64,000 nt of DNA from an uncultured Eubacteriaceae bacterium (GTDB taxonomy: Bacteria > Bacillota > Clostridia > Eubacteriales > UBA1433). The notes below the pieces were generated by a model. It was not told the origin of the DNA and searched no databases. It was given only the letters and a program-made list of their open reading frames with translations. The translations under genes were made by a program, and so were the position numbers. Where the stretch lies: contig CAZOOZ010000001.1 in assembly GCA_964581565.1 (NCBI GenBank), positions 131,470 to 195,469 on the forward strand, given 5' to 3'. Below are positions 6,671-58,251 of this stretch, in pieces (the stretch's first letter is position 1; each line of letters begins with the position of its first letter).

Positions 6671-7180
6671 ATGGATTTATTAGGAAAATATTATTTTTAT
6701 AATCATGCAAATGAAATTGTTGCTACCACACATTACCAGGAACTGCATAGATATATACAACACGGTGAGACAACGGTGTTGGAGCACAGCATTTCGGTTG
6801 CGTATTACAGCTATAAATTGGGAAAATCTTTAAAGTTAAAATGTGATTACCGCAGCCTTATTAGAGGTGCGCTGTTGCATGATTTTTTCTTATACGATTG
6901 GCATAAAAAAGATAAGACGCGCAAACCCCATGGCGTATACCACCCTGAGGTAGCGCTTGAAAATGCATTGAAGCATTTTGAACTCAACCATAAAGAGCGC
7001 GATATCATCGCGAACCATATGTGGCCGCTTAGTCCGAAACCTCCCCACTATGTTGAATCATATCTGGTGTGGACAATAGACAAATATTGCACGATTATAG
7101 AAACCACGTCTAAATTCTTTAAATATAAACAAAAAATGCCGAAAACACTGTTCTACAATACGATTAATTTTGATAAATAA
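6671..7180 (+). CDS. HD-domain phosphohydrolase
   Basis: An H...HD motif (GALLHDFFLYDWH) and a small all-helical 169-aa protein. Confidence 0.7.
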   Translation: MDLLGKYYFYNHANEIVATTHYQELHRYIQHGETTVLEHSISVAYYSYKLGKSLKLKCDYRSLIRGALLHDFFLYDWHKKDKTRKPHGVYHPEVALENALKHFELNHKERDIIANHMWPLSPKPPHYVESYLVWTIDKYCTIIETTSKFFKYKQKMPKTLFYNTINFDK

Positions 7181-7838
7181 GGCTGTCAGGCCCGGGGATA
7201 TTCACTATTTTCGTAATATCGTCTATTTTTTGCTGACTGATTTTCTTTGGTATACTTAAGTCCTCCCAGAAATGCATAGGGATTGCAATTTTGGGGGAAA
7301 TTTTTTGGATAAAATATTTTATCGAATAGTCATAAGCATCTTCAAGTCTCGGATCAACGGGGATAAAAGCCATATCTACTTTATATTTACTTAAATTTTC
7401 AATATGCCGTTTATATTCTTTTTCCATATTTATCTGATTTTGCAGTGTATCTTCATTCCAGTGCCACCAATTTAGATCGCCTGAATGGAAGATTTTATAT
7501 TTTTCGGTCACGATATAAAATGAAACGCCCATATCCGTGGAGCCGAATGTGTAGAGAATGAAGTCCTTAAAAGTGTACTCTTCGTATTCCTTTACTAAAA
7601 CAATGTTTTTTGAAGAATCATAATTTTTTATGTCATCACTTAAGATATAGGTTGTATTTTTATTATCTGCATACGCAAAAATATCCTTGGTGTAGTGGTC
7701 GCCGTGGCTGTGAGAGGCAAGAAAATAAACCGGCTTCGTGTTTAGAGAAATTTTAGGAGGCGTGATTGCATCAATAAGCAGGATAAAAGTATCAAATTCA
7801 AGCATAAAACCACTTTGGAACAAATATGTTATTTTCAT
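7164..7838 (-). CDS. MBL-fold metallo-hydrolase
   Basis: HxHxDH motif (ASHSHGDHY) and later conserved H/D residues (FHSGD, PMHF). Confidence 0.75.
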   Translation of the reverse strand: MKITYLFQSGFMLEFDTFILLIDAITPPKISLNTKPVYFLASHSHGDHYTKDIFAYADNKNTTYILSDDIKNYDSSKNIVLVKEYEEYTFKDFILYTFGSTDMGVSFYIVTEKYKIFHSGDLNWWHWNEDTLQNQINMEKEYKRHIENLSKYKVDMAFIPVDPRLEDAYDYSIKYFIQKISPKIAIPMHFWEDLSIPKKISQQKIDDITKIVNIPGPDSLIYQN

Positions 7839-15079: not shown

Positions 15080-15886
15080 TTATTCTAATATTTTTGGGTT
15101 TTTCAATATTTTTTCGACCGTTTTAAATGCCTTGGACATTGTATACCCGTCACATATTCGCTCGTCAATTGTATAACCTATTGATATTGTTTTAACGCCT
15201 TCGGATGATTTTTGTGTTGTTTTGCCAATTCCCGCGAAAAGGCTGCATGTGCCAAAATTATATAAATGGTGGTATACACGATCGAGTTTTATGGATTTTA
15301 AATAGGTAATATACATGCTCGCATGAAACGGGCTGGCATTTATAATACTTTTGGGAAGAAAGTTATGATTATCTGCAAATTTGCATAAACCAACACCTAT
15401 TCGAATAAGAAAATTTGGCAATTTATTGAAAAAATTAGCCAATGCTTCCGATTGGTTATCATTGATGCTTTTTGTAGCTTTGTTGATTTCTTCCTGCACA
15501 ATCTTTTGTATGTCACAGATATTTTCATTTCCACTGAAACTAATTTTTATAGTCGATTCGTCGCTGTGAAGATCCAGCCGTTTTTTGATAGTAAATGCAA
15601 TGCTGATATCATCTCTCATATAAATTCTTCTATTCACGATAAAACGGTTCAGCTGAGGATTTTCACGAATCGTTCGGACATAACACGCAATAAATAATGA
15701 CAAAAAAGAAATATCTACATGCTCGCTCTGGCGTTTTTCCCTTATATATTCCGTTAAAGGATATGCGTCAAATTCATGCTGATACAGAACTTGAGATTCT
15801 GTTCTGGTAGGCATTATATGAGGAATCACTCTAAAAAACGGATCAGGTAAAGTGATATATTTTCCATCACTTCTTTTTTTGAACAT
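15080..15886 (-). CDS. 2-oxoacid dehydrogenase E2 / CAT-like acyltransferase domain protein with variant active-site motif
   Basis: C-terminal DERICDG aligns with the DHRxxDG motif of the E2 catalytic domain. I moved the start to the ATG at 15886 (MFKKRSDG), which is preceded by AAAGGA. Confidence 0.55.
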   Translation of the reverse strand: MFKKRSDGKYITLPDPFFRVIPHIMPTRTESQVLYQHEFDAYPLTEYIREKRQSEHVDISFLSLFIACYVRTIRENPQLNRFIVNRRIYMRDDISIAFTIKKRLDLHSDESTIKISFSGNENICDIQKIVQEEINKATKSINDNQSEALANFFNKLPNFLIRIGVGLCKFADNHNFLPKSIINASPFHASMYITYLKSIKLDRVYHHLYNFGTCSLFAGIGKTTQKSSEGVKTISIGYTIDERICDGYTMSKAFKTVEKILKNPKILE

Positions 15887-16067
15887 CGTGTAGATCCTTT
15901 CAAACGAAATAATATTTGAGTGGAGGCCATTGTGTTCATTATAATTTTTATTCATGAAAATGTAAAGATATTTACACACATTCTGTGAGAGAGGATAAGA
16001 GATGCTTTTCAATTTTTGTATTTTATGATAATATTTCTATATATTTTGTCTGCATAAAGGAGTATCT

Positions 16068-18391: not shown

Positions 18392-19789
18392 ATGGATAAT
18401 GATAACAGCAAAAAATATGAAGACGAAGAAAGCAGTATAAACAACGAAAATGATCAGTCAATAAATGACGAAGATGATCAATTAATAAATGTACACACAG
18501 ATATTGCGAATACTGATGAAAATAATGGGTCAGATATACAGCTTGTCGAACAAATACCTGAAGTTGAATATGATATCTCCGATGATGAAGAATATGATAC
18601 ATACGAGAAGAAAAGTGTCATTCAAAGAAGATGGTTCAAAGTTTTAATATCTGTTATCGTATTGCTGGGTATTGCAGGTGTTGTAGGTTTTGGTTATATT
18701 AATAAACTTGCAAGCAGTGGATCGGATTCGCTGGCAAGAGAAAATGATAAATTTTTAAATAAAGTTAATGTTTATAAGGGTTTAAATACTGCCGAGAATT
18801 TTGACAGCAATACAATTAATGTGTTGGTTTTTGGTATCGACAGAAGTGAGAGCCGGGAGGAAAGCGGTAAATTCGGGGATATTTACAGACCCGATACGAT
18901 CGTCTTAGCAAGTATAAATTTAGACACAGAAGAAGTGAATTTAATTTCTATTCCCAGAGATACGTATGTGCCTCTTTACGGAAACAGAGGAAAAACAAAG
19001 ATTAACTCATGTATGTATTACGGAGCTATTTACGGCGATAAAGACAGTGATTTCGAAAACGGCTTGGATTGCCTTGAGCAAACGGTAAGTGCTTTGTTTG
19101 GCGGGGTTCCCATTGATTTTTATGTGGGAATAGATATGGATACTGTTGTTGATGTTGTCAACAGCATGGGCGGGGTTGAATTCGATGTTCCGTATAATTT
19201 ATATAAAGATGGCGAGTTGAGGCTAAAAAAAGGGACTCAAGTCTTAAATGGAAAAAATTTTCTTTTCTTGGCTAGAGATAGATACAATGCAGGAAGCGAT
19301 ATCGAAAGAGTATCCATGCAGCAGAAATTATTAAAAGCATTGTTTGAACAATTCAAGGAATCCAATAAGTTGATGTCAATTCCCACGATCTATCAGTCAT
19401 TGAAAGAAGATATCTATACGAACTTTACTTTTGAGCAAGTTGTATCGTTGGCTGCCAATATAAAAGATTTGGAAGTTGATAATATAAATACACATACATT
19501 TCCAGGATTTTATGGCTCCAGAGATGGTATTTCTATGTGGATTATCAATCAATCTGCAAGAGTGTCTTTGATTAAAGAAGTTTTTGGTATTACCGCATCA
19601 CAATGGACGCAAGAGGAACTAAGAATAGATACACGCAAAAATACAACGACCACAGATTCAAGTGATGAAGAAGATGTAACGCCTGATGACGATGCATCAA
19701 CCGACGATACATCAACCGACGATGCTTCTACTCCTGATGACACATCGACAGAAGATACTCCTGCGGACGATTCTACAACAACGCCTTAG
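18392..19789 (+). CDS. LytR-CpsA-Psr (LCP) family glycopolymer ligase with acidic N- and C-terminal tails
   Basis: Single TM (VLISVIVLLGIAGVVGFGYI). LCP core (VLVFGIDRS ... RPDTIVLASIN ... ISIPRDTYV ... FLARDRY). Confidence 0.85.
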   Translation: MDNDNSKKYEDEESSINNENDQSINDEDDQLINVHTDIANTDENNGSDIQLVEQIPEVEYDISDDEEYDTYEKKSVIQRRWFKVLISVIVLLGIAGVVGFGYINKLASSGSDSLARENDKFLNKVNVYKGLNTAENFDSNTINVLVFGIDRSESREESGKFGDIYRPDTIVLASINLDTEEVNLISIPRDTYVPLYGNRGKTKINSCMYYGAIYGDKDSDFENGLDCLEQTVSALFGGVPIDFYVGIDMDTVVDVVNSMGGVEFDVPYNLYKDGELRLKKGTQVLNGKNFLFLARDRYNAGSDIERVSMQQKLLKALFEQFKESNKLMSIPTIYQSLKEDIYTNFTFEQVVSLAANIKDLEVDNINTHTFPGFYGSRDGISMWIINQSARVSLIKEVFGITASQWTQEELRIDTRKNTTTTDSSDEEDVTPDDDASTDDTSTDDASTPDDTSTEDTPADDSTTTP

Positions 19790-19798
19790 GCAGAAAAA

Positions 19799-19824
19799 TT
19801 AGCCTTTTACAGGCTGATTTTTTA
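19799..19824 (+). terminator. Weak rho-independent terminator after the LCP gene
   Basis: Stem TTAGCC / GGCTGA followed by TTTTTT. Confidence 0.45.
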
Positions 19825-19850: not shown

Positions 19851-19878
19851 TTGACAAATATTAAAAATATATTAAAAT
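19851..19878 (+). promoter_or_regulatory. Candidate sigma-A promoter of the phosphonate operon
   Basis: TTGACA (19851-19856), a 16-nt spacer, then TAAAAT (19873-19878). It lies ~80 nt upstream of the ATG at 19961. Confidence 0.45.
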
Positions 19879-19960: not shown

Positions 19961-21274
19961 ATGCAAGATAAGAAAAAAGTATATATAGCTGTGTCCGCTG
20001 ATATTATTCATAGCGGACATATAAATGTAATCGAAGAAGGGGCAAAATACGGACGAGTCATTATAGGTCTTATGACAGATGAAGCGATCGCAGCCTATAA
20101 GAGACTTCCTTTGTTAGATTATGAGGCAAGAGAAAAAATATTTAAAAATATAAAAAATGTTTCAAAAGTAGTACCGCAAACAAGTCTGGATTACACAGAA
20201 AATTTATTAAAATTTAAACCTGATTATGTTCTTCATGGAGACGATTGGAAAAAAGGGATTCAATCGCTTGTAAGAGAAAATGTAATTACCATTCTTTCGC
20301 AGTGGGGCGGAGAATTGGTGGAAGTGCCCTATACAAAAGGAATTTCCGCTACAGACTTAGAGCAGCAATTCAGGCTGTTAAATAACACGCCTGATAACCG
20401 ACGTGCAAAACTTAAACGTTTACTTTCTTTAAAACCCTACATTAGTGCAATGGAAGCTTCCAACGGCTTGACAGGGCTTATCGTTGAAAATATCAGAGTT
20501 GAAAACCCCGTTACTGCGACAATGAAGGAATTTGATGCTATGTGGGTCAGCAGTTTATGTGACTCTACTTTTAAAGGAAAGCCCGACATTGAACTGGTAG
20601 ATTTAACAAGCAGAATAAACACAATCAATGAAATAATGGAAGTGACGACAAAGCCGATTATTTTAGACGGCGATACGGGCGGGAAAATCGAACATTTTGT
20701 GTATAACGTAAAAACACTTGAACGACTTGGTGTTTCCGCAATTATTATTGAAGATAAAACAGGGCTGAAGAAGAATTCGCTTTTTGGTACGGATGTTGAG
20801 CAGACAATGGACGACCCGCATTTATTCGCAAAAAAAATCCTGGCCGGAAAACAAGCGCAGGTTACAAGAGATTTTATGATTTTTGCGAGAATCGAAAGTT
20901 TGATTGCGGGCTATGGGGTTGATGAGGCATTATCGAGAGCGAAGATCTATATAGAAGCAGGTGCGGATGGCATTACAATTCACAGCAAAGAAAAAGACGG
21001 AAAAGAAGTCTTGGAATTTTTAGCAAAATTCAGAGAATATTCGACAGATATACCTATTATCGTTATCCCTACATCGTATAATTATATTAAAGAAGAAGAA
21101 TTGCATGCGGCTGGAGCGAATATTATTATTCATGCCAATCATTTACTTCGAAGTGCGTATCCTGCGATGGAAAAAACGGCAAAAATGATTTTGCAATGCG
21201 GACGAAGTAAAGAAGTAGACGAGTTTTGCATGCCTATAAATGAGATACTGACATTGATTCCAGGAGGCAAATAG
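19961..21274 (+). CDS. Bifunctional cytidylyltransferase (TagD-like, N-terminal) / phosphoenolpyruvate mutase (C-terminal)
   Basis: N-terminal HxGH (IIHSGH), GDDW and an RTxGISTT-like YTKGISAT motif. The C-terminal ICL/PEPM fold has SNGLTGLIVE, ILDGDTGG and IIIEDKTGLKKNS (the Ppm EDKxxxKxNS motif). The gene sits directly upstream of a Ppd gene. Confidence 0.85.
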   Translation: MQDKKKVYIAVSADIIHSGHINVIEEGAKYGRVIIGLMTDEAIAAYKRLPLLDYEAREKIFKNIKNVSKVVPQTSLDYTENLLKFKPDYVLHGDDWKKGIQSLVRENVITILSQWGGELVEVPYTKGISATDLEQQFRLLNNTPDNRRAKLKRLLSLKPYISAMEASNGLTGLIVENIRVENPVTATMKEFDAMWVSSLCDSTFKGKPDIELVDLTSRINTINEIMEVTTKPIILDGDTGGKIEHFVYNVKTLERLGVSAIIIEDKTGLKKNSLFGTDVEQTMDDPHLFAKKILAGKQAQVTRDFMIFARIESLIAGYGVDEALSRAKIYIEAGADGITIHSKEKDGKEVLEFLAKFREYSTDIPIIVIPTSYNYIKEEELHAAGANIIIHANHLLRSAYPAMEKTAKMILQCGRSKEVDEFCMPINEILTLIPGGK

Positions 21275-21276: not shown

Positions 21277-22386
21277 ATGATTGAAACAAAAGAATTTTAT
21301 GATTACCTGCAAACAAAACAGCTGGATATGTATATGGGAGTACCCGATTCGCTTCTGAAAAATATCTGTGCCTGCATAAAAGAAAATTGTTGTAATAAGA
21401 AAAATATTATTACAGCAAACGAGGGAAATGCCGTGGCCATGGCATGTGGATATCATATAGCTACAGGCAAATATGGTATTGTTTATATGCAGAACTCAGG
21501 ACAAGGAAATACTGTAAACCCTCTGCTATCTCTCGCGGATGAAGATGTTTATAAAATTCCGATGCTGCTCCTTATCGGATGGAGGGGAGAGCCGGGGACA
21601 AAAGATGAGCCGCAGCATAAAAAACAGGGGAAAGTGACCCTGTCTTTATTGAATGCGATGGGCATTGAGTATATTATTTTGGAAGATGATTATAAATGTC
21701 AGATAGATTATTGCTATGAATATATGAATAAATATAATAAACCGATAGCACTTATTATACGCAAAGGGCTGTTTTCGGACTATAAGGGATCCAAGAAATC
21801 AAGTCCGTACGTTTTGACACGAGAAGAAGCATTAAAGAGTATTTTAAAAATACTTGATGATGACGAGTTTATTGTGTCTACGACAGGGAAAACATCGCGA
21901 GAAATTTTTGAGTTGAGAGAAGCAAGTGGGCAAGGGCACTCCAATGATTTTCTCACCGTTGGTTCTATGGGGCATACGGCATCCATTGCTTTTGGCATGT
22001 CGCTTGGGACGGAGAAAAACATATATTGTATCGATGGCGACGGATCGTTTCTAATGCACGCAGGTGGTTTTGGAATCATTGCGCAAAATGCGCAGAGTAA
22101 TTTTAAATATATATTGATCAACAATGGTGCGCATGAATCTGTGGGAGGACAGCCGACAGTAGCTTTTGATGTCGATATCGAAATGATATTAAAAGGATTT
22201 GGGTTTAAAGATGTTTATACGGCGACTGACTGCAAAGAAATAGAAAATGCAATGGAAAGTCTTAAAGTCAGTCATAGAAGTGCATTGATAATCTATACAA
22301 AACAAGGTTCTAGAAGCGATTTAGGGCGTCCGACAACAACGCCTCAGGAAAATAAAATTGCGATGATGGAGAAATTGAGTAAATAG
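21277..22386 (+). CDS. Phosphonopyruvate decarboxylase (TPP-dependent)
   Basis: N-terminal GVPDSLLKN motif typical of Ppd, TPP-binding GDGSFLMH ... NNGAHES, ~370 aa. There is a 2-nt gap after the mutase gene. Confidence 0.85.
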   Translation: MIETKEFYDYLQTKQLDMYMGVPDSLLKNICACIKENCCNKKNIITANEGNAVAMACGYHIATGKYGIVYMQNSGQGNTVNPLLSLADEDVYKIPMLLLIGWRGEPGTKDEPQHKKQGKVTLSLLNAMGIEYIILEDDYKCQIDYCYEYMNKYNKPIALIIRKGLFSDYKGSKKSSPYVLTREEALKSILKILDDDEFIVSTTGKTSREIFELREASGQGHSNDFLTVGSMGHTASIAFGMSLGTEKNIYCIDGDGSFLMHAGGFGIIAQNAQSNFKYILINNGAHESVGGQPTVAFDVDIEMILKGFGFKDVYTATDCKEIENAMESLKVSHRSALIIYTKQGSRSDLGRPTTTPQENKIAMMEKLSK

Positions 22387-22388: not shown

Positions 22389-24227
22389 ATGAGAGCGGTT
22401 ATTTTGAATTCGGGATTGGGAAAAAGAATGGGCGAGCTGACGGAAAATAATCATAAAGCGATGGTGCAACTGTCAAACGGAGAAGCTGTTTTTTTAAGAC
22501 AGCTTCGTATTTTGATGGAATGCGGGATCAAAGAATTTGTCGTCACAACAGGGCCGTATAAAGAAAAGATAGAAGCTGCGGTGGCGCAGATGAATACAAA
22601 GAACCAAGTATCTTTTACTTTTGTGCATAATCCGTGCTATGATAAAACCAATTATATATATTCAATGTATTTGGCGAAGCAATTCTTGGATGATGATATA
22701 CTTCTCATGCACGGCGATCTGGTCTTTACGAAAAAACTTGTCGAGGAAATGTGTAAAGATAAGAGAGATAATATTGCTACCGTAAATAAAAAGAAAAGTT
22801 TGCCTGAAAAAGATTTTAAGGCGAAACTTGAAGAAAATAGAATCCAAAAGATAGGCATAGAGCTTTTTGATGAAGACTGCTATGCATTCCAGCCTTTTTA
22901 TAAGCTAAGCAAAGAATATGTCATGCGATGGCGAGAACAAATATGTAAATTTATAGAAAAAGGAATTGATCAGGTTTATGCGGAAAATGCATTGAATGAA
23001 ATCCTGCCTTCTTTAAACATGAATGCATTCGATTACGAAGATTATTATATAGATGAAATCGATACGCCTGAAGACCTAAAGAGGGTAAGCGAAGAAATCA
23101 GGCAATATGATTTTGATGCACAGCAGATATATGATGAAGAAAACGCATATTTGCAAATTGAGTCTATTCTTCAGAAAAATAACGTCAAAAAAGTTATGCT
23201 GGTTTGCGGCAAAAGTTACGACAGGCAGTTTATAAAAGAGTACATGGATTCTTTGAACGTGGAGATGATTCGTTTTAGCGGCTTTGCATCTAATCCTGTA
23301 TATGAAGATGTGGTGAAAGGTGCTGAATTATTCAAGGCCAATAAATGTGAATTTATAATCTCGGTTGGCGGGGGAAGCGCTATCGATACAGCGAAAAATA
23401 TTAAATTGTTTTCATGTCTTGACAGCACTGATAATTATTTGAAGCAAAAATATAAATTTTGCCCTGTGCAGCATTTAGCAATACCTACAACGGCAGGAAC
23501 GGGCAGTGAATGCACCAGATTTTCTGTTTTGTATTATAAAGGGCAAAAACAATCAGTCAGCCATGACAGCATCATCCCCGATTATGTTATTTTAGAACCC
23601 AGATTGCTGCTTGGGTTACCCGAATATCAAAAAAAATCCACAACGCTTGACGCACTTTGCCAAGCAGTTGAAGCTTTTTGGTCGGTAAATTCAAATAAGA
23701 TCAGCAAACAATATTCTAAAGAGAGTATACAGCTCATACTTAATAGTTTTGATAAAGCACTTTTAAATGATTTAAAAGCATTAAAAAATATGCAAAAAGC
23801 ATCTTTTTTAAGCGGGAAAGCAATTAATATAGCGCAAACAACAGCTGCACATGCGATGAGCTATAAATTATCGTCACTTTATAACATTTCTCATGGTCAT
23901 GCCGTAAGCTTAAGTCTGCCTTATATCTGGGAATATATGGTTCAGCATTTAGATCAATGTGCGGATAAAAGAGGCAGAGCATATTTAGAAAATGTATTCA
24001 TCGAGTTAAACGATATATTTGGGGTCAGTAATACTGATGAATGTATCAATAAATTTAGACAAATATGCAATGAATTTAATCTGCAAAATCCAAAATTAAA
24101 AAATAAAGATGAGTTAGAAGAGTTAATAAACTCTGTAAATCCGCTTCGCTTGAAAAATAATCCTGTCACATTGAATATAGATAGTATTGAAGATATTTAC
24201 AGACATATTTTAACTGAGAAAAAGTGA
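22389..24227 (+). CDS. Fusion of LicC-like nucleotidyltransferase (N-terminal) and iron-containing alcohol dehydrogenase (C-terminal; predicted phosphonoacetaldehyde reductase)
   Basis: N-terminal MRAVILNSGLGKRMGELTENNHKAMV plus YDKTNYIYSMYLAK and IDEIDTPEDL, which parallel pneumococcal LicC. The C-terminal domain has GGGSAIDTAKN and the His-rich AHAMSY...SHGHAV Fe-ADH motifs. Confidence 0.8.
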   Translation: MRAVILNSGLGKRMGELTENNHKAMVQLSNGEAVFLRQLRILMECGIKEFVVTTGPYKEKIEAAVAQMNTKNQVSFTFVHNPCYDKTNYIYSMYLAKQFLDDDILLMHGDLVFTKKLVEEMCKDKRDNIATVNKKKSLPEKDFKAKLEENRIQKIGIELFDEDCYAFQPFYKLSKEYVMRWREQICKFIEKGIDQVYAENALNEILPSLNMNAFDYEDYYIDEIDTPEDLKRVSEEIRQYDFDAQQIYDEENAYLQIESILQKNNVKKVMLVCGKSYDRQFIKEYMDSLNVEMIRFSGFASNPVYEDVVKGAELFKANKCEFIISVGGGSAIDTAKNIKLFSCLDSTDNYLKQKYKFCPVQHLAIPTTAGTGSECTRFSVLYYKGQKQSVSHDSIIPDYVILEPRLLLGLPEYQKKSTTLDALCQAVEAFWSVNSNKISKQYSKESIQLILNSFDKALLNDLKALKNMQKASFLSGKAINIAQTTAAHAMSYKLSSLYNISHGHAVSLSLPYIWEYMVQHLDQCADKRGRAYLENVFIELNDIFGVSNTDECINKFRQICNEFNLQNPKLKNKDELEELINSVNPLRLKNNPVTLNIDSIEDIYRHILTEKK

Positions 24228-25078
24228 GAAAGATGCACGATAATTTATATAGAAATAACATTGAACATACTCAAGTAAAGCAACTGCAAGCATACGAGCT
24301 GGAGATTCTGCTTGCAGTAGACGAATTCTGCAAGCAGAACAATATCAATTATTATTTGGGGGAAGGAACTCTACTCGGCGCAATCCGGCACAATGGCTTT
24401 ATTCCGTGGGATGATGATATAGATCTTTTGATGCCGAGAGAAGATTATGAAAAATTTATTAGTCTGGCTCAGATTGCATTTCCTGATGGTTATTATTTAG
24501 ACTGTATGGAAACAAATCCAAATTACTGGGTCATAGGAGCGAAAATTAAATTGACGAGACAAACAAAATTTGAACAGACAAAAGTAAAAAAACTATCAAA
24601 GTATGCCGGGCCGTATATAGACATTTTTCCTTTGGATTATGTTGCAAAAAGAAGTAGTTTCCCGCAGCTTTGGCAAGGATACAAAATAAAAGCTTTACGA
24701 AGAACATTATTTTTCAAAACCAGATATTCAATGAATTTTAAAAATAAATTTAATGTCTTATTATTTTTGTTCAGTAAAATCGTAACTATTAAATTTATTC
24801 ATAAGAGAATAAAAAAAATCATGACTAAATATAACGATAAAAAAGATAATGCATATATGCTGAGTTATGCAAGTTATTATCCGCCCGCCAATCAGACAGT
24901 GCATAAATCTGTATACGGCAAGGCAAGAATGCATGTTTTCGAAGGCTACGAATTCCCGATTCCGGCGAAAACAGAGTGTTTGCTTACGGCCATCTACGGT
25001 GATTATATGACCGTTCCCGATGAGGAAGACAGAATCATGAAGCATCACTTTTCCGTAAAACAAAATTTTTCATATTAG
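24224..25078 (+). CDS. LicD-family phosphotransferase
   Basis: LGEGTLLGAIRHNGFIPWDDDIDLLMPREDYEKF and YGDYMTVPDEE motifs. GTGA overlap with the upstream stop (alternative ATG at 24233). Confidence 0.85.
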   Translation: MRKMHDNLYRNNIEHTQVKQLQAYELEILLAVDEFCKQNNINYYLGEGTLLGAIRHNGFIPWDDDIDLLMPREDYEKFISLAQIAFPDGYYLDCMETNPNYWVIGAKIKLTRQTKFEQTKVKKLSKYAGPYIDIFPLDYVAKRSSFPQLWQGYKIKALRRTLFFKTRYSMNFKNKFNVLLFLFSKIVTIKFIHKRIKKIMTKYNDKKDNAYMLSYASYYPPANQTVHKSVYGKARMHVFEGYEFPIPAKTECLLTAIYGDYMTVPDEEDRIMKHHFSVKQNFSY

Positions 25079-25091: not shown

Positions 25092-26975
25092 ATGGAACAA
25101 GGTAGCATAAAAGTATCTGTTATTGTGCCGGTTTATAATGTGGAGCATTATCTGCCGCAATGTCTGGACAGCTTGGTAAACCAGACATTAAATGATGTGG
25201 AAATTCTTGTAATCAATGATGGCTCCCCCGATAATTCTCAAGTCATTATCGATGAATATGTAAGAAAATATCCAAATAAAATAAAAGCATTTATAAAAGA
25301 AAACGGTGGGCTCAGCGATGCACGCAACTATGGCATCAAAAAGGCGAAAGGGGAATATATCGGGTTTGTTGACTCGGATGATTATGCCGAAGTAAATATG
25401 TTCGAGGAGCTTTATATAAAAGCCGTCAGTGAGAACTTTGACGTTGTTGTTTGCTATATAAATGAGCTTAAAGAAGATAAAACAAAAATCATGCCTCTGC
25501 ACTATTTAAGAGCTTTTGGAGGCAGCGTTGAAGAAAACCCCGAGGTTTTATTTGCGTGTAAATCTTATGCATTTAACAAATTGTATAAAAGAAAACTCTT
25601 TATAGACAATGATCTATATTTTCCTGTGGGCCAGGTTTTTGAGGATTCGGCCACTGTCTATAATGTGCTTTTAATGGCAAATAAAATTGGGCTTGTCGAT
25701 AAAGCTTTATGCAATTACAGAACAGACAGAGTAAATTCCATCACGAACAGTGTTGATATGGGCATGTTTGATGTATTTAAATCCTGCGATAGTATTATTA
25801 ATTTTTATACATCAAAAGGTGTGTTTGATATCACATATGAAGTGCTGGAAAATATATGCAGAATGCATGTTTTTGCAAGAATCAATACACTTAAAAATTC
25901 AACGAACAGAAAATTTCAAAATCAATTTTTTGATAAAGCATATAAATATTTAGATAACCATTTTCCAAATTGGAGAAAAAATAGATATTATCAATATTCG
26001 TATAAAAATTTAATCAAAAAAAGAACGTACAAAAAGTTTACGAAAGCAAAAATGTATAAAACAAGATTAAAAATGTATTTTATAATCCCGATGAGTTTTC
26101 GGCGAAAACTGATGAAAATATTTTGGCGCAAGAAACCAAAGCTTGTTAAGGCAAAGTTTTCGCCGGAACAATTTAAACAATTACAGCTCATTGAATTAGA
26201 CATATTAAAGACTGTGGATGCTTTTTGCAAAGAAAACAATATCGCGTACTATTTGGCCGAAGGAACACTGCTTGGAGCAATCAGGCACAACGGATTCATA
26301 CCATGGGATGATGATGTGGATATTCTGATGCCGAGAGAAGATTATGATAGATTTATCAAATTATTCAATACACAAATAATTGATAACTGCATACTTTGCA
26401 GTCGTCATACTATAAAAGAGTATCATTTGCCGTTTTCAAAAATAGTCACACTTCAAGATACAGGCTTTATTAATAACGAAAGCTTTTCTTTAAAAGAGTA
26501 TAATGGGGTATATATTGATATTTTTCCTCTCGATAAAGCAATCGAATATGGAGAGGAACAGAATCAAAGAAGAAAAAAAATAAGAAAATACAGAGATATG
26601 CTTCTTTTTAAAACAGGCTATCCCATGAAAGCAACAAAAGAGAGGTTTGTCACAAAGATAAGATCTTGTTTTTATTCATATGAAATTTTACATAAAAGAA
26701 TAGAGCAGCTTTCAACTTACTATAATGATAAAGAAGATTGCGAGTATGTAGCTAACTATGCCAGCTCATACCAGCTGAAAAGACAAACATTTCCCATATG
26801 GGCATTTGAAGAAGTTGAATATGTTTCCTTTGAAACATATAAACTACCTGTTCCAAAAGGATATGATTTGGTTTTGAGTATCATTTATGGCGACTACTTA
26901 ACGTTCCCGCCTCTTGAAAAAAGAAAATCAAAACATAGCTTTATTTATATGAATGACGGGCAGATAAAGAGTTAA
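25092..26975 (+). CDS. GT2 glycosyltransferase (N-terminal) fused to LicD-family phosphotransferase (C-terminal)
   Basis: GT2: VSVIVPVYNVEHYL ... INDGSPDNS ... FVDSDD. LicD: LAEGTLLGAIRHNGFIPWDDDVDILMPREDYDRF ... YGDYLTFPP. Confidence 0.85.
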   Translation: MEQGSIKVSVIVPVYNVEHYLPQCLDSLVNQTLNDVEILVINDGSPDNSQVIIDEYVRKYPNKIKAFIKENGGLSDARNYGIKKAKGEYIGFVDSDDYAEVNMFEELYIKAVSENFDVVVCYINELKEDKTKIMPLHYLRAFGGSVEENPEVLFACKSYAFNKLYKRKLFIDNDLYFPVGQVFEDSATVYNVLLMANKIGLVDKALCNYRTDRVNSITNSVDMGMFDVFKSCDSIINFYTSKGVFDITYEVLENICRMHVFARINTLKNSTNRKFQNQFFDKAYKYLDNHFPNWRKNRYYQYSYKNLIKKRTYKKFTKAKMYKTRLKMYFIIPMSFRRKLMKIFWRKKPKLVKAKFSPEQFKQLQLIELDILKTVDAFCKENNIAYYLAEGTLLGAIRHNGFIPWDDDVDILMPREDYDRFIKLFNTQIIDNCILCSRHTIKEYHLPFSKIVTLQDTGFINNESFSLKEYNGVYIDIFPLDKAIEYGEEQNQRRKKIRKYRDMLLFKTGYPMKATKERFVTKIRSCFYSYEILHKRIEQLSTYYNDKEDCEYVANYASSYQLKRQTFPIWAFEEVEYVSFETYKLPVPKGYDLVLSIIYGDYLTFPPLEKRKSKHSFIYMNDGQIKS

Positions 26976-27138: not shown

Positions 27139-27960
27139 TTGGAGAATTCGAAATTGACTATAGAACAAATAAAAGAGTTGCAGGCTATAGAACTAGATAT
27201 CTTATTGCAAGTAGACAAAGTTTGTAAAAAACATAATATAACCTATTATCTCGGAGAAGGCTCTCTGCTTGGAGCTGTACGCCATAAAGGGTTTATCCCA
27301 TGGGATGATGATTTGGATATTCTAATGAAGCGGGATGAGTATGAAAGATTTTTAAAAATCGCACCGGCAGAAATGGGCCCGAATTATGAAGTACAGCATC
27401 CTACCACTGTGTATAGCTATTGGTCGCCTTTTATTAAAGTAAGATTGCTTGGAAAACAGAAGTTCAGGCAAAAGCATATCGCACATCTTACCGAAAATAA
27501 CGGGCCGTATATCGATATTTTTCCGATGGAATCGGTGCCGAAACTAAAAAGTCTCGGACAATTATGGCAAGGCATGAAGATAAATTTTTTGAGAGCCATG
27601 CTTACCTATAAACTAGTTCTGCGTAAACCTAATACTATGAAAAGAAAACTAGTCACTGCATCATCCAAGTTTTTATCGATCAATACAATACACAAGATGC
27701 TTGATAAAAATTTCAAACTATATAATGACAGAAAAGATAATAATTATACCGTCACGCTTGCCAGTTATCATAATATGTTTAATCAGACAGTGCCCGATGA
27801 AGTATACGGGCAGCCTGTAGAGGTAGAGTTTGAGGGACACGTGTTTCCGGCCCCAAGGCAATACGATTATCTTTTAAGACGGGTTTATGGAGATTACACA
27901 AAGCTGCCGCCCCTAGAAAAACAGACTATTAAGCATCATTTTATAGTCATTGAAGAATAA
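27139..27960 (+). CDS. LicD-family phosphotransferase (third paralog)
   Basis: LGEGSLLGAVRHKGFIPWDDDLDILMKRDEYERF ... YGDYTKLPP. The more likely start is the TTG at 27154, 7 nt after GGAGAA. Confidence 0.8.
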   Translation: MENSKLTIEQIKELQAIELDILLQVDKVCKKHNITYYLGEGSLLGAVRHKGFIPWDDDLDILMKRDEYERFLKIAPAEMGPNYEVQHPTTVYSYWSPFIKVRLLGKQKFRQKHIAHLTENNGPYIDIFPMESVPKLKSLGQLWQGMKINFLRAMLTYKLVLRKPNTMKRKLVTASSKFLSINTIHKMLDKNFKLYNDRKDNNYTVTLASYHNMFNQTVPDEVYGQPVEVEFEGHVFPAPRQYDYLLRRVYGDYTKLPPLEKQTIKHHFIVIEE

Positions 27961-35691: not shown

Positions 35692-36222
35692 TTAAAACCA
35701 GTCTTTAATATCGACGCCGTAAGTGTCTTTAAACCCTTCTACATCGGCTTCGTAATAATTTCTCGCGTTTTCCAGTACCAGTTCGGCATCTATATCCGTG
35801 TTATCTGAGAGTATTTTATAACCAAGCAGCTCATCTTTGGAATAAGAATATGCAAATTCTATTTCGATGCTGTCTTCTTCACTGTAATAATAACATAAAA
35901 ATATCTTTTGATCAGGCAGAAATGCCGATACATTGAGCTCGGTATTACTGAAATAAATGATAACCAGATATGGATAGGTAAAGGGTTGTATATCTTCCAG
36001 TTCTTCAAAATATTGCATGAATGTAGTCATCTCGGCGTCACTGAGTGCAACGTTTCTGTCGTTATGTGCATAAATAGCATAGCCGCCATCCATGGAATAC
36101 GTATAATAAAATGCATCATCCTGTAATTGAAGTCCGTATTCGGTGAGATCCTTTGTTTGACGGCATGATGTGGCAGTAAAAGCGAGTAGAATAAGTAGTA
36201 TGATTGCCAGTGTTTTTTTCAT
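35692..36222 (-). CDS. Hypothetical lipoprotein
   Basis: Signal peptide with lipobox (LAFTATSC). I recognised no other motif. Confidence 0.6.
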   Translation of the reverse strand: MKKTLAIILLILLAFTATSCRQTKDLTEYGLQLQDDAFYYTYSMDGGYAIYAHNDRNVALSDAEMTTFMQYFEELEDIQPFTYPYLVIIYFSNTELNVSAFLPDQKIFLCYYYSEEDSIEIEFAYSYSKDELLGYKILSDNTDIDAELVLENARNYYEADVEGFKDTYGVDIKDWF

Positions 36223-38719: not shown

Positions 38720-39850
38720 TTATGCCATCGCTGTAAAGGCATTGTCGATATGAAGTATTTTATTGTCTTCATAGATTTCAATGATATCGAAGCGAATATC
38801 CGTATCCTGAATATGATGTTGCATGATGTAATGCAGTGCGGTTTGTGTGATCTTATTTATCTTGGCATAGTTGACCGCCATGGAGCCTGTGCCGTAGTCG
38901 GTATTTTTTCTCGTTTTGACTTCGCAAAATACCAGATATTCACGATCTTTATAAACAATATCAATCTCACCGTAAGGACTGGCGTAGTTTTTCTCTAGGA
39001 TGCGATACCCTTTATTTGCGATATATTCACAAGCCAGCACTTCGCCTGCATTGCCTATAGCTTTTTTGTCTTTTAGTGTAAATATATTTTTAATAAAGCT
39101 CTGTCTGTGAATAGTGCAAGGACCGTATTTGCGGATTGCTTCAATATGTGAGGATGTACCGTAGCCTTTGTTCGCATCAAATTCATACATAGGATATTCA
39201 AGAGCATATTGCTTCATCATGTGATCTCTGGTAACCTTTGCGACAATGCTTGCCGCTGCGACGGAGTAATAATTCTCATCAGCTTTACTTGGTCCCGCCT
39301 GTCTGATGGGGCAGGGCAGTAACAGTGCATCAATGAGCAGTGCATCGGGGTTGATATTTAAGTTTTCAACTGCTTGCATCATTGCTTCTTTGGTTGCATT
39401 TAAAATGTTGATTTTATCAATTCTATTATTATCGACAAAGCCGATTCCTATGGACATGGCATTTTCATAAATAGTTTGATATAGTTCTTCACGCTTTTTT
39501 TCGGTTAGTTTTTTGCTATCGTTTAGATACAAAACGGGGTTAGTAGCGCTCATTATTGTTGCACATGCCACGACCGGGCCTGCCAGAGGCCCTCTGCCGA
39601 CTTCATCAATTCCGGCAATGAGAACAGCCTCGCCGCCAAACAATGAATTTTGCGCAGCAATCATATGGTCTGTTCTTGTAATCTCTTTGTGATGCAGCGT
39701 TTCCTGTTTTTGCAATTGAGCTGCAAACGCGAGCACACTTTTACGATGATCTAAAAGTAAGTCATTATAATAATTCTTATATTCTTTTATATGAATTGTT
39801 TTGAAATAATTTTTGATTTCCTGAAGGGAAAAGTCTTTAAAATTTATCAT
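38720..39850 (-). CDS. rnhB: Fusion protein: ribonuclease HII (N-terminal) + YraN/UPF0102 PD-(D/E)xK-like endonuclease domain (C-terminal)
   Basis: RNase HII motif GIDEVGRGPLAGPVV ... DSKKL. The C-terminal ~110 aa (GNAGEVLACEYIANKGYRILEKNYASPYGEIDIVY ... FCEVKTR) match the YraN pattern. The two parts lie in one uninterrupted ORF. Confidence 0.8.
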   Translation of the reverse strand: MINFKDFSLQEIKNYFKTIHIKEYKNYYNDLLLDHRKSVLAFAAQLQKQETLHHKEITRTDHMIAAQNSLFGGEAVLIAGIDEVGRGPLAGPVVACATIMSATNPVLYLNDSKKLTEKKREELYQTIYENAMSIGIGFVDNNRIDKINILNATKEAMMQAVENLNINPDALLIDALLLPCPIRQAGPSKADENYYSVAAASIVAKVTRDHMMKQYALEYPMYEFDANKGYGTSSHIEAIRKYGPCTIHRQSFIKNIFTLKDKKAIGNAGEVLACEYIANKGYRILEKNYASPYGEIDIVYKDREYLVFCEVKTRKNTDYGTGSMAVNYAKINKITQTALHYIMQHHIQDTDIRFDIIEIYEDNKILHIDNAFTAMA

Positions 39851-47864: not shown

Positions 47865-49691
47865 TTATCTGTTTCTTTGTCTTAATTTTATTATTATAAT
47901 ACATGCTGCAAGAACTATAAATACCGCACCTATGATAATGACGGCAGTGAGCGGGAATGTCGAGAGACTGACGGGATCAAAGCTAAATTCCAGCTGCTCT
48001 CCGTCATCTGTTGTGCATTTCACTTTCAGCGTAATATCTTTATCGTCTTTATAGTCTTGATCTGATAGCTGTATTACTTGTTTATCGCCAATGATAAGGG
48101 AATCGAGTGTGGCGAGCAAGGCGCCGTTTCTCGCATCGATGATTTCTATATTATTTAAATTTGCATTTCCGTCATTAAGCAGTGTCACATCAAAGCTGAC
48201 ATGTTCTTTATCTTTAGAATTGATATTTTCAATTAAGAGCATTGTGCTCGGTTCGTTTTTACGCTCGACTTCAAAAATCTGTTTCGATAATATGAAAGAA
48301 TTTGCCGTATTTTTTCCGTCTTGCAAAGTCACGCTCACACTGGGAGCACTGACAAAATCGTTTGTGAATTTACCGGTTGCTGTAAAGCTGAATTCTTCAC
48401 CTACAGCTATGCTGTCCGCGGTATAAATTTCTCCCAGAACACCATCCGATATTACCAAATCCGTCAGTTCATAGTCACTGACGTTTTTGGCGGTGTAGGA
48501 AATGGTCGCGTCTGTATAAAAAGGCAACTTATCCGTATCTATACTTCTTTGTATATCCAAACTTGGCGGAACAGAAGAAATGGTGAGTTCGGCGGTTGCT
48601 TTAAAAGGCGTGCTGCTGTCGGCTACATAGGCGTAAATTGCAAACGAATATTGCTTATCGGGTTCAATGGTCATATTTTCCGTAGATGAATTTGAAGCGC
48701 CTGATGCAACTGCGCCTATATCAATGATAGGTTCACTCGATGCTTTGCCGCTGTCATCAAGCAGATAGATAAAAGCTGTAATGACTTCGTAATCCGTATT
48801 ATTTTGAAAATCAAACATAATATCCATTTTTTCTGCGGTTTCGATATAGGTCTTTGCAGGCGTGATATCTAAAGTCAGTTTGCTCTCAATCGGTGAATCT
48901 ATAACTTTGCCTGTTACCTTAACTGTGGGAAGCTCTGTTCGTACACTTTCGCCTGTCATGGCATCCGTATATTCTAAAATAATGTACGAGTTGACGGAGC
49001 CTGCCGGAACAGAGATGTCTTTTTGAAACCGCTTGCTCTGGCCTTCTTTGAGATCGCCGAGGCTGCCAAGCAATCCGTAAGTGGAATCATAGACTTTTAC
49101 ATCGTTTGCTTTCCCGCCCGATGATAAGGTTACTTTTCCGCCGAAAAAGACAGGAAAGTCGCTGATGCCAACCGGATCGGCATCTGTGGTATAAGTGACG
49201 GTAAACTGGGGGGAATAAAGCTTGATCGTGTTACTTGAAGAGGAGTATTCAATCCATTCATTATCCAGTTTATACATAAGTTTGTAAGCAATAGTTATGC
49301 TTTTTCCGTATGTAGATTTCATCGTAACAGAGGTGCCGGTCACTTTTGCTGTTGAGTTTTGGTTTACTGTGGCATACAAGGTTGTCCAGTCTGAGACAAC
49401 GCTGCCGGCCGTGGATGTTATTTTTTCATAAATTGCTATTTCTATAGAACCAGTATACGTGGAGGAGTTTTTAATGCTGTATGTTTGAGCAAATACGCTA
49501 TCCTCGCTTACGGTATAAGTGTCATCTATTGTTTTACCCTGGCCGCTGCTTACAATTTGCGATACGCTTAGGTTCAAATTTATGCTGTCTTGTGTGAGAA
49601 GTTCTTCCGCTGAGATAAATGTCATACTAAAAAGTAAAAAGGTAGTTATAAATAATAACGATATAATCGGTTTAATATTTCTTTTTATCAT
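47865..49691 (-). CDS. Large membrane-anchored surface protein, beta-rich repeat domains, unknown function (608 aa)
   Basis: N-terminal signal peptide (LFSMTFISAEE). The body is S/T/V/Y-rich and looks like several Ig-like modules. A C-terminal TM segment is followed by the basic tail KLRQRNR. Confidence 0.7.
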   Translation of the reverse strand: MIKRNIKPIISLLFITTFLLFSMTFISAEELLTQDSINLNLSVSQIVSSGQGKTIDDTYTVSEDSVFAQTYSIKNSSTYTGSIEIAIYEKITSTAGSVVSDWTTLYATVNQNSTAKVTGTSVTMKSTYGKSITIAYKLMYKLDNEWIEYSSSSNTIKLYSPQFTVTYTTDADPVGISDFPVFFGGKVTLSSGGKANDVKVYDSTYGLLGSLGDLKEGQSKRFQKDISVPAGSVNSYIILEYTDAMTGESVRTELPTVKVTGKVIDSPIESKLTLDITPAKTYIETAEKMDIMFDFQNNTDYEVITAFIYLLDDSGKASSEPIIDIGAVASGASNSSTENMTIEPDKQYSFAIYAYVADSSTPFKATAELTISSVPPSLDIQRSIDTDKLPFYTDATISYTAKNVSDYELTDLVISDGVLGEIYTADSIAVGEEFSFTATGKFTNDFVSAPSVSVTLQDGKNTANSFILSKQIFEVERKNEPSTMLLIENINSKDKEHVSFDVTLLNDGNANLNNIEIIDARNGALLATLDSLIIGDKQVIQLSDQDYKDDKDITLKVKCTTDDGEQLEFSFDPVSLSTFPLTAVIIIGAVFIVLAACIIIIKLRQRNR

Positions 49692-49804: not shown

Positions 49805-50479
49805 TTAACATCTTTGTTGAGGCGGGAAAAATTCCGGGAAGGGAGTAACATTTTCATCCATGAATGTATCGCAGAATTCGATATCGCTTGGCATTTCATC
49901 ACATTCAGGCGGAATATCACAAAATCCATAAGTAGGAATTTTAAGTTGCACTTCACTGACAACTTTTACAATCAAGAATACGCCTATGCTCAGTTGTATC
50001 GCTTCTCTGTTGTCTACGAGATTGCTATAGCCCACTTCTGCAAAGCTTTCAACATAAGGCTCAAAACGGCCTTGTCTTAAATATTCAGCCGGCGCATAGA
50101 CAACAACTTCTATCGGGAAACGTATTTTATTATCGCATTGCATCGTTCCGTTTACAAGTAGTTTGGCGGGAAGTCTGAATATTTCTCCGTCACATTTTCT
50201 TTTTACGACTACGTAGACAGGTATTGCAGCGACAAATCTCATCAATGCATAATTTTCATTGATTTCTTGGAAAAACGGATAATCTCCCCAAGGTTCTACA
50301 TGTGCTTTGCCGAAGTCGGCATGTAAAAATTTATAATCATCGGCTGTACCCGTTGGAAAGTTTACGCAGAATAATGCTCGCTCCAAACAATCGCGCTTTG
50401 AACATGCGTCGTAAACTTTATTTACAATTAAACAATCAACTTCCATACAGCAATTGTTTACTTCAATTCTTTCATCCAA
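49805..50479 (-). CDS. Cysteine-rich hypothetical protein (224 aa, 12 Cys)
   Basis: Uninterrupted ORF with an N-terminal CC-x4-C-x9-C-x4-C-x6-C cluster and a C-terminal FCD..ECD..FCD...C cluster. It has no signal peptide and has its own terminator. Confidence 0.6.
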   Translation of the reverse strand: MDERIEVNNCCMEVDCLIVNKVYDACSKRDCLERALFCVNFPTGTADDYKFLHADFGKAHVEPWGDYPFFQEINENYALMRFVAAIPVYVVVKRKCDGEIFRLPAKLLVNGTMQCDNKIRFPIEVVVYAPAEYLRQGRFEPYVESFAEVGYSNLVDNREAIQLSIGVFLIVKVVSEVQLKIPTYGFCDIPPECDEMPSDIEFCDTFMDENVTPFPEFFPPQQRC

Positions 50480-52174: not shown

Positions 52175-53161
52175 ATGGAGCAAGAGATTTCTATAAACTC
52201 AAAGGATGAATATTTCAGTGATCTCGTAAATCGCTATGGCTTCTCTTATGCGCAGGGTGAAAATACGGCAACCCTGATACCTCCAAAAGAGCTTGGTAGC
52301 GGATATATCAAAGCGGTTCAAGCAAGCGGCGATATTGACATCGGGATCATAGATCTTTTTCTGGCGCGGCCGATTATTTCATATTATGATAATTATTCAA
52401 ATACCTGTGAGGTGACATATTGTTTCAGCGGACATATTTTCTACTCGGAAACTGGTATCACAAAGGCAAATTTAAATAAAAATGAAATGGGAATATATGC
52501 ACTTCCATACAGTCGGGGAATGACCATGATTCCTTCGGGTAAGCGGGTATGTGTTGTGTCGGTGGAATCAAAGAAGCCCTTTCACGATCGACTGCCGTAT
52601 ACCGAGAAGTGCACACAATATGACGATACGTCAGTGAAGAAATTATTACACCAGTTGGTACAGCCGAAAAAGGCAAATGCAAAAATCCACAACTATTTCA
52701 GTCAAATTATAGAAAATAATATCGGTCGGGAATTAAAGAATACATACCTTGATTCGTTAGGCAAAGTCTTATTATCTGATCTGTGGCAGGAAAATATCAT
52801 ACTTCCTCTCACCGGAGGGAAACGCACGGTTTATTCCGGTTTTGAAAGAAACGCACTACTGGAAGCCAAAGAAATTTTATGTGACCATTATTCTTCTCCG
52901 CCAACTATTCCTGAGTTGGCCAAGATGGTTGCGCTCAACGAGCATAAGCTAAAATCTGGTTTCCGTGATATGTATGGCAAGAGCATATATGAATACGTCC
53001 GCAGTTTAAGGATGAAAAACGCAAGCCACCTGCTTGAGAATGTTGATTTAAGCATCAGCGAGATTGCGGGGATGGTGGGGTACGTGAACACCAGCCATTT
53101 TGCCCGCGCCTTCCGAAATGAATATGGCTTAAACCCCAGCGATTTTCGTCTTGGAGTGTAA
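52175..53161 (+). CDS. AraC-family transcriptional regulator (328 aa)
   Basis: C-terminal double HTH (TIPELAKMVALNEHKLKSGFRDMYG ... ISEIAGMVGYVNTSHFARAFRNEYGLNPSDFR) and a ~220-aa N-terminal putative ligand domain. Confidence 0.9.
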   Translation: MEQEISINSKDEYFSDLVNRYGFSYAQGENTATLIPPKELGSGYIKAVQASGDIDIGIIDLFLARPIISYYDNYSNTCEVTYCFSGHIFYSETGITKANLNKNEMGIYALPYSRGMTMIPSGKRVCVVSVESKKPFHDRLPYTEKCTQYDDTSVKKLLHQLVQPKKANAKIHNYFSQIIENNIGRELKNTYLDSLGKVLLSDLWQENIILPLTGGKRTVYSGFERNALLEAKEILCDHYSSPPTIPELAKMVALNEHKLKSGFRDMYGKSIYEYVRSLRMKNASHLLENVDLSISEIAGMVGYVNTSHFARAFRNEYGLNPSDFRLGV

Positions 53162-53204
53162 AAAATCCCGGTTGGAGCGGCGGGAACAACATCATAACTG
53201 GTAA

Positions 53205-53238
53205 AATAAGTGTTGATTTGTAGGCGCTTATTTTTTTT
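53205..53238 (+). terminator. Rho-independent terminator after the AraC gene
   Basis: Stem AATAAGTG / CGCTTATT followed by a T-run. Confidence 0.6.
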
Positions 53239-53245
53239 GAATTGA

Positions 53246-53263: not shown

Positions 53264-53283
53264 ATATAGTGGGGGTACATATA

Positions 53284-58188: not shown

Positions 58189-58251
58189 AAATCCCGATCG
58201 GAGCGGTGAAAATCCGGTTCGGGGTGGTATAAAACCAAACATACCGTTAGA

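Follow-up and report, generated by a model that had tools for sequence, protein, structure and literature searches.

The closest described relative of the protein considered here is Fom1, an enzyme of the fosfomycin pathway of Streptomyces wedmorensis in which an N-terminal cytidylyltransferase domain of the PF01467 family precedes a C-terminal phosphoenolpyruvate (PEP) mutase (Ppm). PF01467 domains are fused to 23.6% of all Ppm, mostly in clusters devoted to cell-surface tailoring with LicD-like transferases, and several of these clusters have a second nucleotidyltransferase one or two genes off (Rice et al., 2019; PMC6697681). PF01467-Ppm fusions were also noted by Li and Horsman (2022; PMC8942020), who found that a branch leading to 2-hydroxyethylphosphonate (HEP), defined by PhpC-like iron-dependent alcohol dehydrogenases (Fe-ADHs), makes up 8.5% of neighbourhoods. 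The stretch of DNA analysed here (contig CAZOOZ010000001.1, from an uncultured Eubacteriaceae bacterium), which is referred to over its whole length of 64 kb as the window, encodes a fusion of the same two domains at positions 19961-21274. We propose, with a probability of about two in three, that this fusion is bifunctional and belongs to a pathway of phosphonate tailoring at the cell surface that ends in HEP. Since PF01467-Ppm fusions are common and linked to the cell surface in the literature, the protein is not novel in its design; the architecture and the non-antibiotic context are already published and widespread, and the window gene is an ordinary representative of them.

A Fom1-type fusion and its relatives

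The gene and its two domains are as follows.

19961-21274, + strand: bifunctional cytidylyltransferase-PEP mutase gene, a single ATG-to-stop open reading frame (ORF) of 437 aa
19961-20365, + strand: N-terminal Fom1-type cytidylyltransferase domain, residues 1-135, from PF01467 and identity to PDB 5X3D
20411-21274, + strand: PEP mutase domain, residues 151-437, from TIGR02320 (residues 151-435)

Pfam places PF01467 (CTP_transf_like) at residues 13-133, where it scores 44.2 bits over a cutoff of 21; PF13714 (PEP_mutase) covers residues 163-411 at 171 bits. In NCBIfam, the C-terminal domain scores 380 bits with the PEP_mutase model TIGR02320, whose equivalog cutoff is 319.55, and stays far under each cutoff of the sister models for phosphonopyruvate hydrolase, methylisocitrate lyase and CPEP mutase. 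These matches are read as strong homology signals, not as chance. The first-pass annotation, made from the letters of the sequence, had located the motifs HSGH and YTKGISAT in residues ~1-135 and taken the remainder for a PEP mutase; the TIGR02320 score bears out this division, and the motifs were found at residues 17-20 (nt 20009-20020) and 124-131 (nt 20330-20353), with the loop Y46-K47-R48 between them (nt 20096-20104). The mutase domain carries EDKTGLKKNS at residues 264-273 (nt 20750-20779), an instance of the Ppm-specific motif EDKxxxxxNS (PMC6697681). An alignment of 15 sequences from across phyla showed that H17, G19, H20, Y124 and T125 of the cytidylyltransferase domain and D236, E264, D265, N272 and S273 of the Ppm domain are invariant, and that D238, K270, R310 and H341 of the latter are conserved in at least 90%. 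By way of the Mytilus Ppm numbering, these positions of the Ppm domain correspond to its Mg2+ and catalytic residues, which comprise the two Asp of DxD, the Glu, Lys, Asn and Ser of the motif, an Arg and a His.

The best structural match of the N-terminal domain is the cytidylyltransferase domain of Fom1 (PDB 5X3D), to which it aligns without gaps at 72/130 identical residues (55%; E 1.3e-48), so that the identification as a Fom1-type fusion stands. The next structures are human ECT (E 4e-17) and TagD (PDB 1COZ; E 3.8e-9), and the C-terminal domain matches the solved PEP mutases 5UNC (E 1e-42) and 1M1B (E 1e-35). The motifs common to the window domain and Fom1 are HxGH, SYKRLP/AYKRLP and PYTxGIS(S/A)T. 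Both have an R-to-Y change within the RTxGISTT motif, where TagD and ECT retain the arginine, and both have an insertion after GDDW that is absent from TagD and ECT; relative to TagD the insertion in the window domain is of 9 residues. The TagD equivalog model TIGR01518 gives the window protein 51.2 bits against a cutoff of 165.4. The comparison with the Fom1 and TagD structures that the first-pass annotation had called for was thus made at the level of aligned sequences, where it separated the two families and brought out a Tyr46-Lys47 loop in common with Fom1.

A word-index search returned at least 8000 homologous proteins at E <= 1e-10, and the two-domain architecture is kept in all of the best 120 of them (71-100% identity). 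Among genome loci, fusions at 44-96% identity occur in Clostridia, Bacilli, Bacteroidales, Ignavibacteria, Paceibacterota, Neomarinimicrobiota, Pelagibacteraceae and a Methanosarcinales archaeon. These numbers, together with the share of Ppm given above, leave the implication that the fusion is unusual without support. The nearest genome is a metagenome-assembled genome (MAG) of an uncultured Eubacteriaceae bacterium, at 96% identity, and the G+C content of the window is ~37%, both in agreement with the low-G+C Gram-positive host that had been supposed. All family motifs of the cytidylyltransferase domain (HSGH, YKR, Q101, GDDW, YTKGISAT) are retained in the window protein. The domain shares 94% identity with its counterpart in another species, whereas the adjoining genes share just 78-89%, a difference that points to purifying selection on it.

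Two of the related loci deserve mention in their own right. In a Bacilli MAG (L003, 8001-9298) the fusion gene is split over two reading frames near residue 84, by a frameshift or an assembly error. In a member of the Spirochaetia (L027, 8001-9221) the cytidylyltransferase domain is kept, the Ppm motif is degraded (EDEAASIHRNSL; DIGRSE replaces DGDTGG) and there is no adjacent phosphonopyruvate decarboxylase (Ppd); this homologue is probably not a PEP mutase.

HEP as the likely substrate

The first-pass annotation had considered the substrate of the cytidylyltransferase domain unreadable from the sequence. Gene context and the residue pattern shared with Fom1 go beyond this and point to HEP. 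The comparison took in the window and a further 107 loci with related fusions, of which genomes supplied 27 and metagenomes 80; they span Clostridia, Bacilli, Bacteroidales, Ignavibacteria, Pelagibacteraceae and Methanosarcinales. The 75 loci with enough flanking DNA were classified by tblastn, with the Ppd, alcohol dehydrogenase, PntC-like and LicD proteins of the window and the Pfam-checked 2-aminoethylphosphonate (AEP) transaminase (AEPT) of locus L005 as queries. An Fe-ADH lies beside Ppd in 68 of them (HEP-type), and an AEPT is found in 7 (~9%; AEP-type). No PntC-like (PF12804-type) gene was found by tblastn with two PntC-type queries in the available DNA of 50 of the 68 HEP-type loci, so that the fused cytidylyltransferase is the sole candidate activator seen there. 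A PntC-like gene is present in six of the seven AEPT-type loci.

The two types of locus differ in the loop at positions 46-47. The pair Tyr46-Lys47 occurs in 66 of the 68 HEP-type loci and in none of the seven AEP-type loci (Fisher 2e-8, calculated with kinship ignored), and it is found in the window protein and in Fom1 (SYKRLP); three separate AEP lineages have YW, FA or H[KR] instead. Lys47 alone, which 15 sequences had indicated as a marker of HEP against AEP loci, was dropped, since position 47 is K or R in four AEP-type loci too, and the marker was narrowed to the pair after the metagenome loci. The loop aligns with K44-K46 of TagD, whose K44 and K46 have a role in that enzyme.

Taken with the ADH context, this pattern makes HEP the likely substrate of the window domain and CMP-HEP its likely product. 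Fom1 itself is reported to cytidylylate HEP, in a passage of Rice et al. that cites Cho 2017 (PMC6697681). Glycerol-3-phosphate is an unlikely substrate, because the score with the TagD equivalog lies so far below its cutoff.

One lineage of fusions (L065, L074, L076, L079, L084, L094-L096, L100 and L106) shows a change of HxGH to HPGL or HPGY, by which the second histidine is lost, and of Tyr46 to His. Where the context is visible, these fusions are mostly accompanied by an AEPT and a separate PntC gene, and their cytidylyltransferase domain may be inactive or repurposed.

The gene cluster and the proposed pathway

The fusion gene is surrounded on the same strand by the following features.

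18392-19789, + strand: LytR-CpsA-Psr (LCP) family protein, putative polymer-to-peptidoglycan ligase (PF03816, 115.9 bits)
19793-19823, + strand: terminator-like hairpin with a T-run, 3' of the LCP gene (13 pairs)
19851-19878, + strand: candidate sigma-70-like promoter, TTGACA-16-TAAAAT (11/12 consensus match only)
21277-22386, + strand: Ppd, thiamine pyrophosphate-dependent (TIGR03297, 435.9 bits against a cutoff of 312.5; PF02776, PF02775)
22389-24227, + strand: fusion of a LicC/PntC-like nucleotidyltransferase (residues ~1-240) and an Fe-ADH (residues ~245-612), 612 aa (PF12804, PF00483, PF00465, PF25137)
24224-25078, + strand: LicD-family phosphotransferase 1 (PF04991, 158.7 bits)
25092-26975, + strand: fusion of a family 2 glycosyltransferase (GT2) and LicD (PF00535, PF04991)
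27139-27960, + strand: LicD-family phosphotransferase 3 (PF04991, 155.1 bits)

From the LCP gene through the third LicD gene, the local unit consists of seven genes. A ribosome-binding site (AAGGAG) lies 8 nt 5' of the ATG of the fusion gene, Ppd starts 2 nt past the fusion stop codon and the first LicD gene overlaps the preceding stop by 4 nt; from the fusion to the GT2-LicD gene, the spacing ranges from this 4-nt overlap up to a 13-nt gap, and 163 nt precede the third LicD gene. The tight spacing and the dedicated promoter-like site fit an operon headed by the fusion gene. The LCP gene is probably transcribed separately from the phosphonate genes; it also adjoins the fusion in loci L001 and L028-L033. 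An identical 437-aa protein with the same neighbours is present on 17 metagenome contigs, and the three LicD domains of the window are mutually 40-47% identical. A search with Rfam at the gathering threshold gave zero families across the 64 kb, hence no riboswitch or leader accounting for operon regulation.

The fusion, the PntC-like-ADH protein, the three LicD domains and the GT2 all lie within 8 kb, and by its predicted proteins the cluster is one of the Pnt kind as defined by Rice et al. (2019), with Ppm, a nucleotidyltransferase and LicD-like or glycosyl transferases. Pfam analysis of ORFs of at least 150 aa in the window detected no class-V aminotransferase (PF00266, AEPT), no Fom3-, Fom4/HppE- or FomD-like gene, no resistance kinase and no choline kinase or transporter (licA/licB); a TagF-like gene is likewise absent from the 64 kb. 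The earlier view of a cell-envelope, non-antibiotic setting is upheld by this combination of LCP, LicD and GT2 genes with no tailoring gene of the fosfomycin type.

We infer the activities, the HEP substrate and the acceptor polymer of the following pathway from the domains and motifs observed, the order of the genes and the associations found by comparison. The C-terminal domain of the fusion would convert PEP to phosphonopyruvate, which Ppd would decarboxylate irreversibly to phosphonoacetaldehyde, pulling the unfavourable equilibrium of the mutase. The ADH domain encoded at 22389-24227 is predicted to reduce phosphonoacetaldehyde to HEP; the presence of an Fe-ADH and the lack of an AEPT in the window are the reasons for predicting HEP, that is, a HEP variant of the Pnt scheme. 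The Fom1-type domain would then use cytidine triphosphate (CTP) to convert HEP to CMP-HEP, a reaction for which the ADH-fused PntC-like domain is a further candidate. The three LicD enzymes, one of them joined to the GT2, would shift the phosphonyl group from CMP-HEP to the sugars of a wall polymer, either a polysaccharide or one resembling teichoic acid. The acceptor sugars would be added by the fused GT2 together with enzymes whose genes lie elsewhere, and the LCP enzyme would anchor the polymer to peptidoglycan. It is the association of LicD, GT2 and LCP genes that indicates a destination in the wall glycan. The first-pass annotation had taken this architecture, in the fosfomycin pathway, to couple the mutase step to cytidylylation, a view that finds no support here. 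The mutase equilibrium heavily favours PEP and pathways pull it by the irreversible Ppd decarboxylation (PMC8942020), an enzyme encoded here 2 nt downstream, and cytidylylation would come two steps later.

The likeness of this cluster to the fosfomycin pathway extends to the Ppd and Fe-ADH that follow the fusion, but the window lacks the tailoring enzymes Fom3, Fom4 and FomD, its CMP-HEP is predicted to be the donor for LicD and not a transient carrier for C-methylation, and its host is a low-GC bacterium of Clostridia type, in contrast to the actinomycete host of Fom1. The Pnt clusters of Atopobium rimae, Olsenella uli and Treponema denticola resemble it in having a nucleotidyltransferase-fused Ppm with another nucleotidyltransferase, of PntC type, at a distance of one or two genes, LicD-like or glycosyltransferase genes and a phosphonate sent to the cell surface (PMC6697681). 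They differ in encoding an AEPT and making AEP, where the window has an Fe-ADH and a predicted HEP product; in Tde1415, PntC is fused to the AEPT, whereas the PntC-like domain of the window is fused to an ADH. The Ppm-Ppd-FeADH core and the glycan destination are shared with HEP-type ppm neighbourhoods, which include that of the HEP-bearing exopolysaccharide of Stackebrandtia nassauensis (PMC8942020). Compared with these neighbourhoods, the window belongs to another phylum, has three LicD, an LCP protein and the PntC-like-ADH fusion as accessories, and is known from its genes alone.

The Lic pathway of Streptococcus pneumoniae (LicC, LicD1, LicD2) also uses a cytidylyl-activated head group, transfer by LicD to teichoic-acid sugars and more than one LicD paralogue; its head group is imported choline, whereas that of the window would be made de novo with a C-P bond, and licA and licB are missing from the window. 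Bifunctional CDP-ribitol synthases (Bcs1, of the TarI-TarJ type) combine a reductase and a cytidylyltransferase in one protein, in which a carbonyl is reduced and the product then activated with CTP for a wall polymer. The 22389-24227 product would follow the same logic of reduction and activation, with an Fe-ADH in place of a short-/medium-chain dehydrogenase of unrelated fold and a phosphonate in place of a pentitol phosphate as substrate.

The flanks of the cluster hold housekeeping genes, with an aconitase-family hydratase upstream, an ABC-F protein downstream and the FtsEX-PcsB division genes further upstream. Several other features of the window were noted. In the LCP protein the membrane segment is preceded by a long, acidic N-terminal stretch of low complexity (~90 residues, with D, E and N abundant), and the C-terminal tail is rich in D, S, T and P. 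Between the PcsB-like M23 peptidase and the hydratase, a 310-aa ORF on the - strand (15080-16012) is matched only weakly and in part by the 2-oxoacid dehydrogenase acyltransferase domain and by nothing in NCBIfam, and gene callers give it 268 aa on related contigs. A 376-aa ORF (38720-39850, -) is a fusion of RNase HII and a UPF0102 (YraN-like) domain. Five ORFs of 176-608 aa, all on the - strand (7164-7838, 35692-36222, 47865-49691, 49805-50479 and 62508-63539), have no Pfam match at E <= 1e-5. The region 52175-61846 has 45-50% GC, against ~37% for the window. Its genes are those of an AraC-type regulator, of two fused ABC exporter proteins and of an ABC importer of the Opp/Dpp type, made up of two permeases, two ATPases and a family-5 binding protein; the region may have been acquired horizontally as a transport island.

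Two cytidylyltransferases in one cluster

The N-terminal domain of the 22389-24227 product scores 41.3 bits with PF12804 (cutoff 27) and matches IPCT (2XME), LicC (1JYK) and Tde-PntC (6PD1). It keeps the G-x-G-x-R plus Lys signature, its NSGLGKRM and HKAM aligning with AAGLGTRL and PKAL of LicC. The fusion of this nucleotidyltransferase to an Fe-ADH is widespread: it is kept in all 120 clusters listed, at 47-100% identity, and relatives with an added LicD form triple fusions of 875-1005 aa (P0125, P0144, P0163, P0186, P0194, P0203, P0215, P0224, P0229, L114 and L115). Two of these triple fusions (L114, 8001-10676, and L115, 8001-10637) come directly after a cytidylyltransferase-Ppm fusion and Ppd, with a Glyphos_transf gene of TagF type and an ABC exporter beside them. 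The parallel with Tde1415, in which PntC is joined to the maker of its substrate, suggests that the PntC-like domain of the window also handles HEP. The amine is contacted in Tde-PntC by E104 and E196 and in LicC by D105 and D192, residues whose numbering the HMMER alignment did not reconcile with that of the window domain. A phosphocholine role of the Lic type was set aside for want of licA and licB in the window, which could lie elsewhere in the genome.

Several points weigh against assigning HEP activation to the Ppm-fused domain or the pathway to the wall. By the Rosetta-stone logic of its fusion to the ADH, and to LicD in relatives, the PntC-like domain has a claim to HEP activation that is no weaker, and the Ppm-fused domain could be redundant. 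The association of Tyr46-Lys47 with HEP-type loci ignores phylogeny and includes just seven AEP-type loci from three lineages; the ADH-type locus L084 has the non-YK, HPGL form; the Fe-ADH calls in distant loci depend on 25-48% tblastn identity and on position; and the genes for the acceptor glycan do not lie within the window.

The consequence of the first of these points would be that the Ppm-fused cytidylyltransferase is redundant or being lost and persists as a passenger with a structural or regulatory role, CMP-HEP being made by the domain fused to the ADH. Such a course of events has support in the proven activity of PntC enzymes as phosphonate cytidylyltransferases (PMC6697681), in the precedent of Tde1415, which makes CMP-AEP, in the spread of the nucleotidyltransferase-ADH fusion and its triple forms inside fusion-Ppm/Ppd clusters, and in the HPGL/HPGY lineage, where the domain appears able to decay alongside PntC. 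It is nevertheless unlikely for the window protein, in which every family motif is intact and the domain shows the signature of purifying selection described above (94% identity against 78-89% for its neighbours). The presence of two activating enzymes would also be accounted for if they divided the substrates between them, the PntC-like domain taking HEP and the fusion domain a phosphate ester, such as glycerol-3-phosphate, for a teichoic-acid-like backbone. PF01467 is indeed the family of TagD, and in related clusters the cytidylyltransferase-Ppm gene has for neighbours an ABC exporter and a CDP-glycerol glycerophosphotransferase of TagF type, with no stand-alone TagD visible within 8 kb. 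Against this stand the low score with the TagD equivalog (51.2 bits, cutoff 165.4), the E-values for TagD and Fom1 (3.8e-9 and 1.3e-48), the tracking of residues 46-47 with the type of phosphonate (ADH or AEPT), unexpected for a glycerol-3-phosphate enzyme, the lack of a TagF-like gene in the window and the failure of tblastn to find a PntC-like gene in most HEP-type loci, so that a division of this kind seems improbable.

A different phosphonate of the pathway as the substrate, either AEP produced with a transaminase encoded elsewhere or phosphonoacetaldehyde, is more doubtful still. About 9% of related fusions lie in AEPT clusters, and PF01467-Ppm fusions among AEP clusters were recorded by Li and Horsman (PMC8942020), yet the window contains no class-V aminotransferase, its ADH occupies the place held by AEPT in AEP clusters and its protein has the HEP-associated Y46-K47 in place of the AEP-associated variants. 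That the cluster makes a diffusible, fosfomycin-like antibiotic through transient CMP-HEP, as in Streptomyces, could be argued from the Fom1-like architecture and the predicted HEP intermediate; it is close to refuted by gene content, since the operon and the window have no Fom3-like B12/radical-SAM methyltransferase, HppE epoxidase, FomD hydrolase or resistance kinase and encode three LicD, a GT2 and an LCP protein instead.

The bifunctional, HEP-directed enzyme proposed at the outset leaves room for a more far-reaching variant, which is a long shot: the two cytidylyltransferases would be non-redundant, and CMP-HEP would not just supply decorations but also extend chains as a monomer. HEP bears both a hydroxyl and a phosphonate, and it is on this account that CMP-HEP could extend a chain. 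Multiple LicD enzymes (with TagF-like ones in relatives) would build up, by phosphonate ester links, a polymer or side chain resembling teichoic acid, with one cytidylyltransferase serving priming and decoration and the other elongation or a second head group. If true, a polymer linked by phosphonate esters would be something new for Gram-positive walls. A search of the literature on LicD with HEP, on PntC and on Fom1 and CMP-HEP brought up no work on a wall polymer with HEP in a Firmicute, nor any that asks why two cytidylyltransferases are present.

The window fusion leaves the picture drawn in 2019-2022 unchanged and adds one more uncultured, Clostridia-type (Eubacteriaceae-like) bacterium predicted to decorate its surface with phosphonates. 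The survey sharpens the question of why some clusters retain two cytidylyltransferases. It also indicates that Fom1-like cytidylyltransferase-Ppm fusions are overwhelmingly of the HEP branch (68/75 loci), and this tie, together with the change or decay of Tyr46-Lys47 and HxGH in AEP clusters that rely on PntC, provides a testable rule for which phosphonate is activated. Surface phosphonates bear on phosphorus cycling, on recognition by phages and the immune system and on the resistance of wall polymers to phosphatases.

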